A DNA stretch of 64,000 nucleotides. Origin: Candidatus Eiseniibacteriota bacterium (GTDB lineage Bacteria > Eisenbacteria > RBG-16-71-46). Below are positions 3,601-15,551 of this stretch, piece after piece; within the stretch, counting starts at the first letter, position 1, and every line of letters starts with the position of its first letter. The notes under the pieces were generated by a model that had not been told where the DNA came from, made no database searches, and saw only the letters and a program-made list of their open reading frames with translations. The position numbers and the translations under genes are program-made. The stretch lies in NCBI GenBank assembly GCA_031370785.1, contig JANMQY010000084.1, positions 310-64,309 on the forward strand, given 5' to 3'.

Positions 3601-3629
3601 TTGACCACCTCTCGCCCCACTCCTACCCT
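3601..3629 (+). promoter_or_regulatory. sigma70-type promoter, probably leaderless pabB
   Basis: TTGACC-17nt-TACCCT, ATG 7 nt downstream, no SD. Confidence 0.55.
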
Positions 3630-3636
3630 TCGCCGC

Positions 3637-5067
3637 ATGCCATCCGGTCTGCCGCTTCCGCTCGTCCGCGCCGTGGACTTGAAGGACCCGAGGGACGCGC
3701 TGCGAGCGCTCGCCACGCTGCCGCACCGCTTCCTGCTGCATTCGTCCATGCAGGACGACCGCGCGCGCTGGTCGTTCTTCGGCGCCGAGCCGTTCTCCCT
3801 GTACAAAGGCGGCGACTACCGTGGCGGGGTGGCCGCGTTCCGCCGTGTGGTGGCGCGCGTGGCCGGCGACGAAAACGCGACCACGCTGGTCCCATTCACC
3901 GGCGGCGCGGTGGGCTACTGGGCCTATGATTTCGGCCGGCGGCTCGAACGCCTGCGCTCGGATCCGGGGCCTGCCGACGATCTCGCGCTCCCGGATTTCC
4001 TGCTCGGCTTCTACGACGTGGTCGGAGCGTTCGATCACCGCACGCGCGAGGCCTGGCTGTTCTCGAGCGGCCTGCCGCTGGATGGCGAGCGCCGGATCGA
4101 GCACGCGGCGCGCCGCCTCGATCGTTTCGCCTTCCTGCTCGAGCACGCCTCGGGAGATGCGTCGGCGCTGCCGGATATCGGCGAGCTTCCGGAGCCTGCC
4201 GCCTCGAATTTCACGCCGGAGGCCTACCGTCGCGCGGTCGAGCGCGTGCAGGACCACATCCGGCGCGGCGATCTGTTCCAGGCGAATCTGTCGCAGCGCT
4301 GGAGCCTGAAGGTCGAGTGCGAGGATCCCGCGGCGCTGGCCGAGGCCGTACACGATCGACTCGCCCGCCTCTCGCCCGCGCCTTACGCCGCATTCCTCGA
4401 TGCCGGCGACCACGCGATCGCCTCGGCCAGTCCGGAGAGATTCCTCGAACTGCGCGGGCGGCGCGTCGAGACGCGGCCGATCAAGGGCACGCGCCCGCGC
4501 GATGCGGATGCCGCGGCCGACGAGAAGCTGCGCGCGGAGCTGCGCGCGAGCGCGAAGGATCGGGCGGAGAACGTGATGATCGTGGACGTGCTGCGCAACG
4601 ACCTCGGCCGGGTGTGCGCGACCGGCTCGATCCAGACCCCGGAGCTGTGCGTGCTGGAGTCCTTCCCGCAGGTGCACCACCTGGTCTCGACCGTCACCGG
4701 GACGCTCGGCGATGGGCACGACGCATTCGATCTGCTCCACGCCTGCTTCCCCGGCGGCTCGATCACCGGCGCGCCCAAGATCCGGGCGATGGAGATCCTC
4801 GACTCGCTCGAGAGCGTGCGCCGCCACATTTATACCGGCAGCATCGGCTATGTGGACTGGCGCGGCGATGCCGACTGGAGCATCGCGATCCGCACCGCGC
4901 TGGTGACGCAGAACGCGATCCACTTCTCGGCAGGCGGCGGGATCACCGCCGACTCCGATCCGGAAGCCGAGTACCTCGAGACCCTGCACAAGGCAGAAGG
5001 CCTGCGCCGCGCGCTGGCCGAGATCGTCGGCCCGGCCGCGCTCGAGATCGGCGCCGTGTCCAGGTGA
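3637..5067 (+). CDS. pabB: aminodeoxychorismate synthase component I
   Basis: PFTGGAVGYWAYD, SASPERFL, RPIKGTRPR, KDRAENVMIVD, FPGGSITGAPKIRAM; PIKGT is typical of PabB; next to PabC. Confidence 0.85.
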   Translation: MPSGLPLPLVRAVDLKDPRDALRALATLPHRFLLHSSMQDDRARWSFFGAEPFSLYKGGDYRGGVAAFRRVVARVAGDENATTLVPFTGGAVGYWAYDFGRRLERLRSDPGPADDLALPDFLLGFYDVVGAFDHRTREAWLFSSGLPLDGERRIEHAARRLDRFAFLLEHASGDASALPDIGELPEPAASNFTPEAYRRAVERVQDHIRRGDLFQANLSQRWSLKVECEDPAALAEAVHDRLARLSPAPYAAFLDAGDHAIASASPERFLELRGRRVETRPIKGTRPRDADAAADEKLRAELRASAKDRAENVMIVDVLRNDLGRVCATGSIQTPELCVLESFPQVHHLVSTVTGTLGDGHDAFDLLHACFPGGSITGAPKIRAMEILDSLESVRRHIYTGSIGYVDWRGDADWSIAIRTALVTQNAIHFSAGGGITADSDPEAEYLETLHKAEGLRRALAEIVGPAALEIGAVSR

Positions 5068-11817: not shown

Positions 11818-13422
11818 ATGCTCCAGACACCGCACGTCGCCTACTTCTGCATGGAATTTGGCCTGCACGAGTCCTTCCCGATCTACTCGGGCGGGCTCGG
11901 AGTGCTGGCGGGCGACTTCATCAAGTCGGCGCACGACCTGAAGCTTCCGGTGGTCGCGGTCGGACTGCGCTGGGAGCGCGGCTATTGCGTGCAGCGCATC
12001 GGCGCCGACGGCCGGCCGCATGACGAATTCCCCGAGTACGACCACGGCTTCCTCGAGGACACCGGAGTCCGAGTGCGGGTGCGCATCCGCGGCGTCGAGG
12101 TGCCGTGCGCGGTGCGCATGACGCAGCGCTTCGGTCACGTGCCGCTCTACCTGATCGATCCGATCCGCAGCGAGGATCGCTGGATCACGCACCGGCTGTA
12201 CGAGGCCGGCACCGATGTGCGCATCGCGCAGGAGATGCTGCTCGGGATCGGCGGCATCCGGGCGCTCAACTGGCTCGGGATTCCGATCGCGACCTGCCAC
12301 TTCAACGAGGGCCATGCGGTGTTCGCGGGGCTCGAGATGATCGCCGAGGCGATGGAGAGCAGCGTGCCCTTTCCCGATGCGTGGGAGGCGACCCGGCGGC
12401 GCATCGTGTTCACCACCCACACCCCGGTGCAGGCCGGCAACGAGCAGCATTCGATCAAGGACCTGCGGCGCATGGGCGCGTGCCTCGAGCTGTCCGGCGC
12501 CGAGATGCGCGCGATCGGCGACGATCCGTTCAACATGACCATCGCCGGCCTCAGGTTGGCACGCGCCGCCAATGCCGTGTCGCGCCTGCACGCCGAGACC
12601 TCACGCGCGATGTGGTCGCACGTGGACGATGCGGCGCCGATCTTCGCGATCACCAACGGCGTGCACGCGCCGACCTGGCAGGCCGAGTCGATCCGGAAGG
12701 CATCGCACGAACCCGCGCGCATCGGAGCCGCGCACGATGCGCTCAAGCGCGAGCTGCTCGACGAGATCGCGCGCCGCGGCGGGCCGCGTCTCGCACCCGG
12801 CACGCTGCTCATCGGATTCGCGCGCCGCGCGGCGAGTTACAAGCGCAGCGATCTGATCCTTCGCGACGAGGTGCGGCTGAGGCGCCTGATCGAGGGCGGG
12901 AAGGTCGCGCTCGTGTTCTCCGGCAAGGCGCACCCCGACGACGGCGCCGGCAAGGGGATCGTGGCCTCGATCGTGCGCTCGCAAAAGGCGCATCCGGGCG
13001 GCGTCGTGTTCCTCGAGAACTACGACATGGCGATCGGCCGACTGCTGACGCGGGGCTGCGACGTGTGGCTCAACAATCCGGTTCGACCGCTCGAGGCGAG
13101 CGGCACCTCGGGGATGAAGGCCGCCATGAACGGCACGCTCAACCTGAGCATTCTCGATGGATGGTGGCCGGAGGCCTGCGAGCATGGGGTCAACGGCTGG
13201 GCGATCGGAGACGACAAGCCGTCGAACGACGAGCGCGACTTCGAGGCGCTCTACGCCACGCTCGAGCGCGATGTCCTGCCAGCCTGGGGCGACCGTAAGC
13301 GCTGGACCAGGATGATGGCCGCCAGCGTGCGCACGGCGGAAACGGGCTTCTCGTCGGATCGCATGGTACGCGAGTACTTCGACCAGCTGTATCGGCTGCC
13401 GCAGCCGGTGGAGTCCCGGTGA
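11818..13422 (+). CDS. glgP: alpha-glucan phosphorylase (compact form)
   Basis: AYFCMEFG..YSGGLGVLAGD, HFNEGH, FTTHTP, GFARR, GKAHP, EASGTSGMK (PLP lysine). Confidence 0.92.
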   Translation: MLQTPHVAYFCMEFGLHESFPIYSGGLGVLAGDFIKSAHDLKLPVVAVGLRWERGYCVQRIGADGRPHDEFPEYDHGFLEDTGVRVRVRIRGVEVPCAVRMTQRFGHVPLYLIDPIRSEDRWITHRLYEAGTDVRIAQEMLLGIGGIRALNWLGIPIATCHFNEGHAVFAGLEMIAEAMESSVPFPDAWEATRRRIVFTTHTPVQAGNEQHSIKDLRRMGACLELSGAEMRAIGDDPFNMTIAGLRLARAANAVSRLHAETSRAMWSHVDDAAPIFAITNGVHAPTWQAESIRKASHEPARIGAAHDALKRELLDEIARRGGPRLAPGTLLIGFARRAASYKRSDLILRDEVRLRRLIEGGKVALVFSGKAHPDDGAGKGIVASIVRSQKAHPGGVVFLENYDMAIGRLLTRGCDVWLNNPVRPLEASGTSGMKAAMNGTLNLSILDGWWPEACEHGVNGWAIGDDKPSNDERDFEALYATLERDVLPAWGDRKRWTRMMAASVRTAETGFSSDRMVREYFDQLYRLPQPVESR

Positions 13423-14072
13423 ACGCGCTCGCGCTGATCGGGCTCGGACTCGTCCTCGGCATCCGTCACGCCACCGATCCCGATCACGTGGTCGCGGTGG
13501 CGGCGATGACCGCGCGCACCCGCCGGCTGCTCCCCGCGGCGTGGCTCGGCGTGGTGTGGGGACTCGGGCACACGCTCACGCTGTTCACGGTCGGAGCTGC
13601 GATCATCCTGCTCGATCTCACCATCCCTCCACGCGTCGGTCTCGCGCTCGAATTCCTGGTCGCGCTGGCGCTGGTCACCGTCGGCGCGCTCAATCTGAGG
13701 CGCGCGGTGCACGCCGCCCACGAGGAGCCGGCGTCGCGCATTCCCGCGTGGCGCGCGTTCGGCGTGGGACTGACGCACGGGCTGGCGGGCAGCGCGGCGG
13801 TCGCGCTGCTGGTGCTGGCCACGGTGCACGATCCGCGGCTTGCCTGCGCCTACCTGCTGGTATTCGGCGCCGGCACGCTGATCGGAATGGTGCTGATCAC
13901 GACCAGCTTCGCGGCCCCGCTTTCGCTCGCTGCCCGGCGCTGGCCGCGCTTCGGGACCGTGCTGCGCGTCGCGACCGGTGCGCTCTCGGTCGGCTTCGGG
14001 GCGTGGCTCATCGCCCAGATCGGGTTCGTCGACGGACTGTTTCTCGCGATCCCGCGATGGACCTCGCACTGA
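13419..14072 (+). CDS. NiCoT/HoxN-UreH-like nickel/cobalt transporter
   Basis: RHATDPDH, WGLGH, GLTHGLAGSA; several TM segments. Confidence 0.85.
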   Translation: MNALALIGLGLVLGIRHATDPDHVVAVAAMTARTRRLLPAAWLGVVWGLGHTLTLFTVGAAIILLDLTIPPRVGLALEFLVALALVTVGALNLRRAVHAAHEEPASRIPAWRAFGVGLTHGLAGSAAVALLVLATVHDPRLACAYLLVFGAGTLIGMVLITTSFAAPLSLAARRWPRFGTVLRVATGALSVGFGAWLIAQIGFVDGLFLAIPRWTSH

Positions 14073-14079
14073 GCGCGCA

Positions 14080-14109
14080 TTGACGATTCACTTTCCCCGG
14101 CCCTAGACT
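14080..14109 (+). promoter_or_regulatory. sigma70 promoter of tyr leader
   Basis: TTGACG-18nt-TAGACT. Confidence 0.6.
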
Positions 14110-14119
14110 CGTGCGCGTC

Positions 14120-14179
14120 ATGAACCGGTCGATCGACACCTGCGCCTATTACGGCCCTCCCGCTCGGGAGTGGGCCTAA
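14120..14179 (+). CDS. leader peptide MNRSIDTCAYYGPPAREWA
   Basis: 19-codon ORF with tandem Tyr codons (TAT TAC, 14147-14152) upstream of an attenuator hairpin and the tyrA fusion. Confidence 0.75.
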   Translation: MNRSIDTCAYYGPPAREWA

Positions 14180-14239
14180 GGCGTAGGCGCGACGACACTC
14201 GCACCTCACCCACTTCCACGAAGCGCGGAGGTGGTTTTT
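14142..14239 (+). promoter_or_regulatory. ribosome-mediated transcription attenuator
   Basis: Terminator CCACTTCC(14210-17)/GGAGGTGG(14227-34)+TTTTT; antiterminator GGGAGTGGG(14166-74)/CCCACTTCC(14209-17); protector GCGCCTA(14142-48)/TAGGCGC(14184-90). Confidence 0.75.
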
Positions 14240-14270
14240 CGTTTTCCGCCCGCGCTTCCCGGAGGCTAAA

Positions 14271-15443
14271 GTGATTTCCGAAGCGCACGGCATCGCCGCG
14301 GTGCGCGGCGCGGTTCCGGTCCGCGCCAATACCGCATCCGACATCGTCGACGCCACCGCACGCCTGTTGCGCGCCCTGCTCGAGATCAACCGGCTCGAGC
14401 CCTCGCGCATCGTGAGCGCGCTGTTCACCACCACCGAGGACCTCGACGCGGACTTTCCGGCGCACGCCGCAAGGCGCCTCGGCTGGAGCGAAGTGCCGAT
14501 GCTGCACGCGAGAGAGATCCCGGTTCCGGGCTCGATGCCGCGCGTGGTTCGCGTGATGCTGACGGTGTGGGGCGTTTCCCCGGGCGCGCGCCTGACGCCG
14601 GTCTATCTCGACCAAGCCGCGGCGCTGCGCCCGGACCTGGCCGTGAGCGGCGCGACCGAGCGCCCTGAGACCGGACCCGCGAAGCCGACGCGGCGCATCG
14701 CGCTGATCGGGCTCGGGCAGATCGGCGGCTCGATCGGGCTCTCGCTGCCGCCCGCGCGCTGGCACCGCGTCGGCTGGGACGTGGACGCATCGGCGCTCGC
14801 AGGTGCGCGTGCCGTGGGAGCGATCGACGTCGCCGCCGCCTCGCTGGCCGATGCGTGCGCCGGCGCCGACCTCGCGGTGATCGCGACGCCGGTCGATGCG
14901 CTGTCCAGCGCGATCGACGCCGCCGCAACCGCACTCCCGCCTGGCGCCGCACTGCTCGATACCGGCAGCGCGCGCACCACGATCACGCCCGCACTCGAAC
15001 GCGCCGCGGCACGCGGAATTCACGCGGTGGGAGGCCACCCGCTCGCCGGCAGTGAGGGCCGCGGCTTCCCAGCCGCGCGTGCTGGCGCCATGCGCGGCGC
15101 ACGCTTCGCGTTGCTACCGCTCTCTGATGGAGTGCCCCCGATCGTGCACGAGCTCCTCTCCGATCTCGGCGCGCAACCACTCACGATCGATCCGACGGCT
15201 CACGACCACGCCCTCGCGCGCACCAGCCACCTGCCCTACCTGCTGGCCTGCGCGCTACGCGAACTCGGAACGCCATTCGCCGAGCGAGGCCTGAGCGGCC
15301 CCGGTTTCGTCGACATGACCCGCCTGGCCGGCGGCGATCCCGGGATGGCCGGAGCCTTCTGCCGAGCGAACGCGCGCGAGGTCGCGCAAGCCTGGCGAGA
15401 ACTGGTGGCGCGAATGAATGAGCGGGTGACAGCGCTGGGTTGA
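14271..15443 (+). CDS. aroH-tyrA: AroH-type chorismate mutase / prephenate dehydrogenase fusion
   Basis: N-terminal AVRGA..FTTTEDLDADFPA..REIPVPGSMPRVVRVML (AroH); C-terminal GLGQIGGS, DTGS, GGHPLAGSE, HD..ARTSHLP (TyrA). Confidence 0.88.
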   Translation: MISEAHGIAAVRGAVPVRANTASDIVDATARLLRALLEINRLEPSRIVSALFTTTEDLDADFPAHAARRLGWSEVPMLHAREIPVPGSMPRVVRVMLTVWGVSPGARLTPVYLDQAAALRPDLAVSGATERPETGPAKPTRRIALIGLGQIGGSIGLSLPPARWHRVGWDVDASALAGARAVGAIDVAAASLADACAGADLAVIATPVDALSSAIDAAATALPPGAALLDTGSARTTITPALERAAARGIHAVGGHPLAGSEGRGFPAARAGAMRGARFALLPLSDGVPPIVHELLSDLGAQPLTIDPTAHDHALARTSHLPYLLACALRELGTPFAERGLSGPGFVDMTRLAGGDPGMAGAFCRANAREVAQAWRELVARMNERVTALG

Positions 15444-15551
15444 TCGACGCTCTTGTCCTCGCGTGCCTGTACGGCTATCATGAACGCGTCCTCGTTTCTA
15501 TACCGGCGCTTCCCACCTCTCTCCTCATAGAACCCCTTCAGGAGATGGTTC

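Follow-up and report, generated by a model that had tools for sequence, protein, structure and literature searches.

A putative tyrosine-sensing leader-peptide attenuator upstream of the chorismate mutase-prephenate dehydrogenase gene of Candidatus Eisenbacteria

In the window (the whole 64,000-nucleotide stretch of DNA analysed here) a spacer of 198 nt separates the gene of a NicO-like membrane protein (13419-14072) from a 390-aa gene (14271-15443) coding for a fusion of chorismate mutase and prephenate dehydrogenase (CM-PDH). This spacer carries a real and conserved element: its component sequences recur in related genomes, its antiterminator (2:3) and terminator (3:4) helices covary, the tyrosine codons of its short ORF are conserved in frame, and the positions of these codons are matched to those of the helices. 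Taken together, these features make it very probable that the element is a classical ribosome-mediated transcription attenuator sensing charged tRNA-Tyr, which we term ‘tyrL’ for the tyrA-like gene downstream of it. The mechanism itself is well known and is not new. We also favor, with distinctly less assurance, a broader reading: that this is an undescribed family of Tyr-specific leader attenuators belonging to a lineage-wide, ribosome-sensed aromatic regulon of Candidatus Eisenbacteria, with leaders for Tyr at CM-PDH, for Trp and Tyr at DAHP synthase, for Trp at trpE in some genomes and possibly for Phe at CM-PDT in others.

The leader and its structural gene

The features of the leader and its structural gene all lie on the plus strand. 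The sole promoter-like site in 13500-15000, for which shuffled sequences lead one to expect 0.1 sites, is a sigma-70-like promoter at 14080-14109: its -35 hexamer TTGACG (14080-14085) and -10 hexamer TAGACT (14104-14109), both from a promoter scan, are separated by an 18-nt spacer, and the TTGAC of the former is kept in an alignment of 11 orthologous leaders. Ten nucleotides 3' of the -10 hexamer is the ATG (14120) of an ORF of 19 codons and TAA (14120-14179; stop codon at 14177-79), whose product is MNRSIDTCAYYGPPAREWA. It has no Shine-Dalgarno site, and as the ATG is only 10 nt after the -10 hexamer, the 5' UTR can be at most a few nucleotides long. As in classical attenuators, a short and apparently translatable ORF is thereby placed between the promoter and the structural gene, with TAT TAC (14147-14152) as its predicted regulatory Tyr codons.

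Folding defines four regions in the leader. Region 1 (14139-14161), which includes the Tyr codons, forms the 5' arm of a protector helix with 14166-14187 (dG -31.2, z -4.4). Region 2, with the core GGGAGTGGG (14166-14174), has region 1 and region 3, CCCACTTCC (14209-14217), as alternative partners; its pairing with the latter constitutes the antiterminator, which is the minimum-energy structure when 14164-14219 is folded alone (dG -24.7, z -3.0). Region 3 in turn alternates between region 2 and region 4, GGAGGTGG (14227-14234): CCACTTCC at 14210-17 pairs with region 4 in an 8-bp stem (dG -14.4, z -3.5), followed directly by the U tract TTTTTCGTTTT (14235-14245), forming an intrinsic terminator 5' of the structural gene. 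A T-rich tract also follows the stem in the aligned leaders. Hence, the three helices, 1:2, 2:3 and 3:4, are mutually exclusive in these folds. The whole leader (14112-14250) folds with a dG of -60.2 kcal/mol (z -3.2), and equally good folds were seen in 0 of 200 shuffles. A simple consensus terminator scan of the leader region returned 0 sites because the terminator loop has 9 nt and the scan is limited to loops of 8. In all, the leader spans about 125 nt, most of it taken up by the ORF and the terminator; the U tract ends 25 nt short of the GTG start of the structural gene, whose Shine-Dalgarno sequence GGAGG (14261-14265) is not sequestered by any helix. An initial annotation of this DNA had proposed the promoter, the near-leaderless 19-aa ORF with its Tyr-Tyr pair, the helices and the U tract, and all of these were recovered, with offsets of no more than a few bases, at the positions first assigned to them.

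The same annotation had identified the gene as a chorismate mutase-prephenate dehydrogenase, which agrees with its domain matches: CM_1 (PF07736, E 1.7e-36), PDH_N and PDH_C. In this Tyr-branch enzyme (14271-15443) an AroH-type, and not an AroQ-type, mutase is fused to the dehydrogenase; the E. coli T-protein is analogous but has a different mutase fold. Among named sequences, those nearest to the fusion protein come from MAGs labelled Candidatus Eisenbacteria (62-68% identity). The genome with the window (contig C64; 3.44 Mb in 147 contigs, 68% G+C, completeness score 100%) has the fusion as the only AroH domain and the only chorismate mutase domain found in it: AroQ chorismate mutase (PF01817) was not found in the genome, nor was prephenate dehydratase (PF00800), for which the same search was positive in 14 of 14 control genomes. 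With the fusion as sole chorismate mutase and no prephenate dehydratase, control of CM-PDH by Tyr only would starve no other branch. The failure to find prephenate dehydratase and AroQ suggests that the organism is a phenylalanine auxotroph or uses an unrecognised dehydratase. Across the family, prephenate dehydratase is present in just 9 of 41 genomes, and in 4 of 4 inspected loci it is fused to an AroQ domain of its own.

Conservation and covariation of the leader

We recovered 25 unique versions of the element, all from Candidatus Eisenbacteria of two families of one order and always upstream of a CM-PDH gene. A protein search of 41 related genomes gave a match to the fusion protein in 23 (the tallies of this search and of the DAHP synthase loci discussed below include one unpublished genome, G026, whose sequence was not used and on which none of the conclusions depends). 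The upstream DNA of 19 loci with the chorismate mutase end contained a homologous leader in 11 instances and none in 8: at two of the latter (L005 and L015) the upstream gene ends near the CM-PDH start, and the other 6 have unrelated upstream DNA. The 11 leaders were used to build a covariance model (R1; 130 positions, 19 pairs), which found matches in 27 of 89 genomes of the window's family. These comprise 28 matches: 23 are Tyr leaders directly 5' of a CM-PDH gene, 2 are Trp leaders 5' of a trpE-like gene and 3 are gene-end terminators only. Searched against a phylum-wide sample, the model matched 24 of 151 genomes: the window's family contributed 21 (of 59), a second family of its order 1 (of 6), and the 85 genomes of all remaining families a single weak match. 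The 23 Tyr leaders of the family search and 2 from the second family make up the set of 25. The weak match, in another family of the class (L074:1501-1624, G161; E 7e-5), aligned solely over the terminator arms and was dropped as a non-member. No Tyr leader was found at chorismate mutase or prephenate dehydrogenase loci of other phyla (L035-L044) or at one further Eisenbacteria locus (L031). As the same arrangement is kept in 25 unique leaders, the architecture is beyond chance.

Covariation was assessed in an alignment of the 25 leaders from region 2 to region 4 (A4). In the antiterminator, 94.7% of 225 cells are paired, a figure favored by the way region 2 was delimited, namely as whichever 9-mer of a leader best complements its region 3, as against 42-66% when the partner is slid by 1-3 columns; two pairs (12 cells) have changed on both sides. 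The terminator is paired in 98.2% of cells (slid controls 50-66%), again with two pairs (11 cells) changed on both sides. Because the genomes are related, these cells do not represent independent events. From clade to clade, all three regions change in concert: GGGAGTGGG / CCCACTTCC / GGAGGTGG of the window, for regions 2, 3 and 4 respectively, become GGGGATGGG / CCCGTCTCC / GGAGGCGGG in one genus; another genome has GGGGGCGGG / CCCGCTTCC / GGAGGCGGG. The inner protector helix is paired in 90.7% of cells over 26 rows, with one-sided variation only and no compensatory changes. Covariation was thus seen in the antiterminator and terminator but not in the protector helix, and 1:2 pairing stands without double changes. 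When the duplex energy of each region 2 was computed against five types of region 3, its own partner was the best in just 9 of 25 cases, because variants replacing G-U by G-C improve every pairing; the sole clean contrast is that between the CCCACTTCC and CCCGTCTCC classes.

The leader ORF itself carries a coding signal. In all 25 leaders the ORF opens with ATG, spans 19-25 codons and ends at a stop just past region 2. Clustered cognate codons are conserved in them, as in classical attenuators: 24 of the 25 have 2-4 Tyr codons patterned YY, YxY or YxYxY, and the remaining one (G096) has one Tyr codon only, the neighbouring position being occupied by His (CAC). Tyr accounts for 62 of 568 leader residues (10.9%) versus 2.1% of codons in the long ORFs of the genome, and TAY triplets inside the leader ORFs number 62 in frame versus 0 and 2 in the other two frames. 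The two codons vary synonymously, with 32 TAT and 30 TAC, as compared to a TAT share of 21% among the genome's Tyr codons. Conservation of the Tyr codons across orthologs, named in the initial annotation as a check, is therefore in frame, with synonymous variation. Further, reading of the upstream sequences revealed a TAnnnT hexamer 6-10 nt 5' of the ATG in 25 of 25 leaders. This leaves no space for a Shine-Dalgarno site; therefore, the leader ORF is likely to be leaderless or nearly so.

These observations bear on an alternative explanation, in which a ligand or a protein acts on the hairpins as a terminator/antiterminator switch (as in riboswitches, or in TRAP- or PyrR-like systems) and the short ORF is incidental and untranslated. 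The conservation and covariation of the helices, which hold regardless of the ORF, would fit such a switch. However, it does not account for the near-confinement of TAY triplets to the ORF frame, the free interchange of TAT and TAC, the invariance of the ATG and of its short distance from the -10 hexamer or the position of the stop codon, which is always 3' of region 2. Moreover, the RNA beyond the helices is poorly conserved, leaving no ligand pocket, and an Rfam cmscan of 13000-15500 with E up to 10 retrieved no leader, riboswitch or T-box family. The three matches that it did return (SAH, mir-2766 and CRISPR-DR29) are at chance level and all far below their gathering scores. We accordingly regard such a switch as very improbable.

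Ribosome position and the proposed switch

From these features we infer where transcription starts, that the ORF is translated, and that stalling and termination couple it to tyrosine. Transcription would start at or a few nucleotides before the AUG, and the ORF would be translated with no 5' UTR or almost none. When Tyr-tRNA is plentiful, the ribosome is expected to reach the stop codon (14177-79) and cover region 2 (14166-74); region 3 (14209-17) would then pair with region 4 (14227-34), and the polymerase would terminate in 14235-45, before the CM-PDH gene. When Tyr-tRNA is scarce, the ribosome would stall with TAT or TAC (14147-52) in its A site, holding region 1 and leaving region 2 free to capture region 3 as soon as it is transcribed: the terminator would be blocked and the CM-PDH gene transcribed. 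If the leader is left untranslated, regions 1 and 2 would pair with each other and the terminator would form.

The geometry of this scheme was examined in silico: each codon in turn was placed in the A site, the RNA was masked to 10-12 nt beyond its first base and the transcript was folded as it stands before region 4, with capture defined as pairing of region 2 with at least 8 of the 9 bases of region 3. A first simulation with a 15-nt mask gave the antiterminator in 1 of 25 leaders only; as it covered half of region 2, this mask was judged too long and the simulation was redone with 9-13 nt. Capture of region 3 is then limited to a short run of codons that coincides with the Tyr codons: in the window's leader it is A-Y-Y-G at offset 12 and Y-Y-G-P at offset 10. 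The initial annotation had predicted that a stall at 14147-52 frees 14166-74 for 14209-17, and with Tyr in the A site simulated masking gave capture of region 3 in 24 of 25 leaders, which applies only before region 4 is transcribed. For a ribosome placed at the stop codon, the simulation gave the terminator in 25 of 25 leaders. Thus, in the model, a stalled ribosome would mask region 1 and not region 2, and one at the stop codon would mask region 2, as in classical attenuators. Tyr is the commonest residue of the capture window: at offset 12 it accounts for 44 of 146 codons inside and 18 of 422 outside (odds ratio 9.7; 4.9-19 across offsets 9-13). Relatedness among the source genomes means that the 25 leaders do not count as independent observations, and Fisher statistics on them are overstated.

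It is against this enrichment that one may weigh a second alternative, in which the leader couples attenuation to translation but senses general translation capacity, or the supply of Ala, Arg or Pro, and not Tyr specifically. At offset 12 the antitermination window is indeed also rich in codons for Ala (33) and Arg (23), and the leader in the window has just two Tyr codons. Yet Ala and Arg are equally common outside the antitermination window (66 each), as expected at 68% G+C, while Tyr alone is both enriched within it and conserved in position across clades; the regulated gene is, moreover, the Tyr-branch enzyme. The odds of this explanation are, in our estimate, slight. The single Trp codon that had been pointed out in the window's leader is present, but does not appear to be regulatory: it lies inside region 2 and outside the antitermination window, and is replaced there by Met or Gly codons in other clades. 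Hence, its role is structural. A TnaC-like arrest sensor (TnaC being the nascent-peptide arrest sensor for tryptophan), in which a conserved peptide, Y-x-Y-P ... G-W, stalls the ribosome upon free tyrosine, would explain why residues other than Tyr recur (Pro following the last Tyr, Gly-Trp close to the end), but these are encoded by the CCCC and GGGGTGGG helix arms, become G-M-G and G-T-G exactly where the helices covary, and would give a response of the wrong sign, with abundant Tyr inducing a biosynthetic gene when its product is plentiful, making this the least credible of the three.

The attenuator reading makes a demand on folding kinetics. The alternative folds predicted for the leader each form in their own segment, but with region 4 transcribed the antiterminator no longer represents the equilibrium fold: even a ribosome placed at a Tyr codon abolishes the terminator at equilibrium in no more than 15-16 of 25 leaders, and in 14162-14236 of the window the terminator stays the minimum-energy structure. 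Therefore, the antiterminator must win kinetically, in the course of transcription. It probably forms first and persists while the polymerase passes the U tract, as in classical systems.

Known attenuators and other aromatic leaders of the lineage

Leader-peptide attenuation is textbook knowledge for Trp, Phe, His, Leu, Thr and Ile/Val, and the curated Rfam leader families are those of the Trp, Phe, His, Thr and Leu leaders and the like; the element described here does not belong to any of them. Tyrosine genes, on the other hand, have been described under the control of TyrR or of T-boxes. TyrR is a DNA-binding protein tied to free aromatic amino acids, and E. coli tyrA is under its control; we know of no leader that controls this gene. 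T-boxes, which require a structured leader of some 200 nt, recognise uncharged tRNA by direct binding. The long structured leader, specifier loop and tRNA-binding T-box sequence that define them are not seen here, as there is no Rfam match and the leader has only about 125 nt. TyrR, the Tyr T-boxes (which respond to tRNA-Tyr charging) and the element are alike in tying the expression of tyrosine genes to tyrosine supply, but in the last the sensor is predicted to be the translating ribosome. A conserved, covarying leader with Tyr codons thus fills a gap in the control of these genes.

The trpL/pheL logic attributed to the leader in the initial annotation is supported by the comparative and folding tests in silico. 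Like E. coli pheL-pheA and trpL-trpEDCBA (summarised in PMC11802643), it has a short leader ORF with codons for the end product, and it shares with them regions 1-4, mutually exclusive 1:2, 2:3 and 3:4 helices and an intrinsic terminator before the gene. E. coli pheA is likewise a chorismate mutase fusion serving one branch. Unlike pheL and trpL, the element would sense Tyr, its ORF has no Shine-Dalgarno site and is predicted to start at or next to the transcription start, it is unrelated to them in sequence or Rfam family, and its host belongs to an uncultured candidate phylum. The nearest published Tyr-containing leader that we found is aroR, 5' of aroF of C. glutamicum, for which ribosome-mediated attenuation with a Phe-Tyr-Phe motif was reported by Neshat et al. 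2014 (cited in PMC11802643). It too has Tyr in a leader before an aromatic-pathway gene; however, according to the same review, it responds to Phe with no effect of Tyr availability, and it controls DAHP synthase and not the Tyr branch, whereas in the leaders reported here Tyr is the only conserved regulatory residue. The leaderless polycysteine short ORFs of mycobacteria, described in bioRxiv 10.1101/834739 as Cys-responsive attenuators of downstream genes, are comparable by description only: they are leaderless short ORFs forming the first cistron and respond to an amino acid, but they sense Cys and are found in Actinobacteria. A comparative study of Actinobacteria (PMC1262725) reports having seen no RNA element before tyrosine genes, and names T-boxes as their regulators in Firmicutes; a survey of 26 genomes (PMC8632094) has, in its excerpted part, uORF attenuators for Cys and Phe and none for Tyr. 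Our own exact-phrase and broader literature searches, covering main texts mostly outside subscription journals, found no Tyr-specific leader or attenuator, and an earlier description is possible. Within the Rfam and literature searched, the initial view that a Tyr-codon attenuator is unusual therefore holds.

Other aromatic genes of the lineage have comparable leaders. In the genome with the window, a type-I DAHP synthase (contig C125; gene at L080:1240-2253) has a leader ORF of its own, MRLTRCTWYWRWYGNARRGRECASVQ (L080:1065-1145), with three Trp, two Tyr and no Phe; it has a Shine-Dalgarno site and is followed by a terminator. A small ORF with at least 3 aromatic residues, in many cases with WxWRWYG, is found 5' of DAHP synthase in 17 of 29 related loci and was absent by a crude test in the other 12; one locus from an unpublished genome was excluded from this comparison. 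Aromatic biosynthesis in this lineage thus seems to be controlled as a rule by ribosome-sensed attenuation, which lends support to the reading of the Tyr leader as an attenuator. If so, the combination of Trp and Tyr without Phe in the DAHP synthase leader would mirror the apparent lack of a phenylalanine branch, and the regulatory codons of leaders may reveal the biosynthetic capacities of an uncultured organism: Tyr and Trp would be made and Phe probably not. The Tyr leader would place the ribosome-sensing design, whether it evolved there or was retained, in a candidate phylum that has no cultured member, and would combine it with leaderless initiation. At about 125 nt it is a compact part and, if it responds to tyrosine as expected, may find use as a biosensor.

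At two loci, L069:1501-1663 (G085) and L071:1501-1647 (G020), WWWW and WVWWW leaders are located 5' of a trpE-like gene. The terminator of these Trp leaders, CCCACTTCC...GGGGGTGGG, is near-identical to that of the Tyr leaders, which suggests either shared ancestry or a common terminator module. The trpE of the window's genome has no leader; its start overlaps the upstream gene. Another locus (L077, G045) holds an AroQ-CM/PDT fusion gene, and the stretch scanned upstream of it contains three Phe codons in a small ORF, MTRDRLTFGFLFTRSRGAGGGRL, possibly a Phe leader. A crude genome-wide search for a short ORF followed by a terminator and a downstream ORF gave 115 candidates, but in a genome this rich in G+C they were mostly noise and were not used. 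Lastly, at 3601-3639 of the window TTGACC, 17 nt, TACCCT, 7 nt and an ATG follow one another in an arrangement like that of the leader ORF; the gene after it is an anthranilate/isochorismate synthase paralogue with 43% identity to the TrpE-like protein of a relative. This second leaderless-type start hints that leaderless mRNAs are common in the organism.
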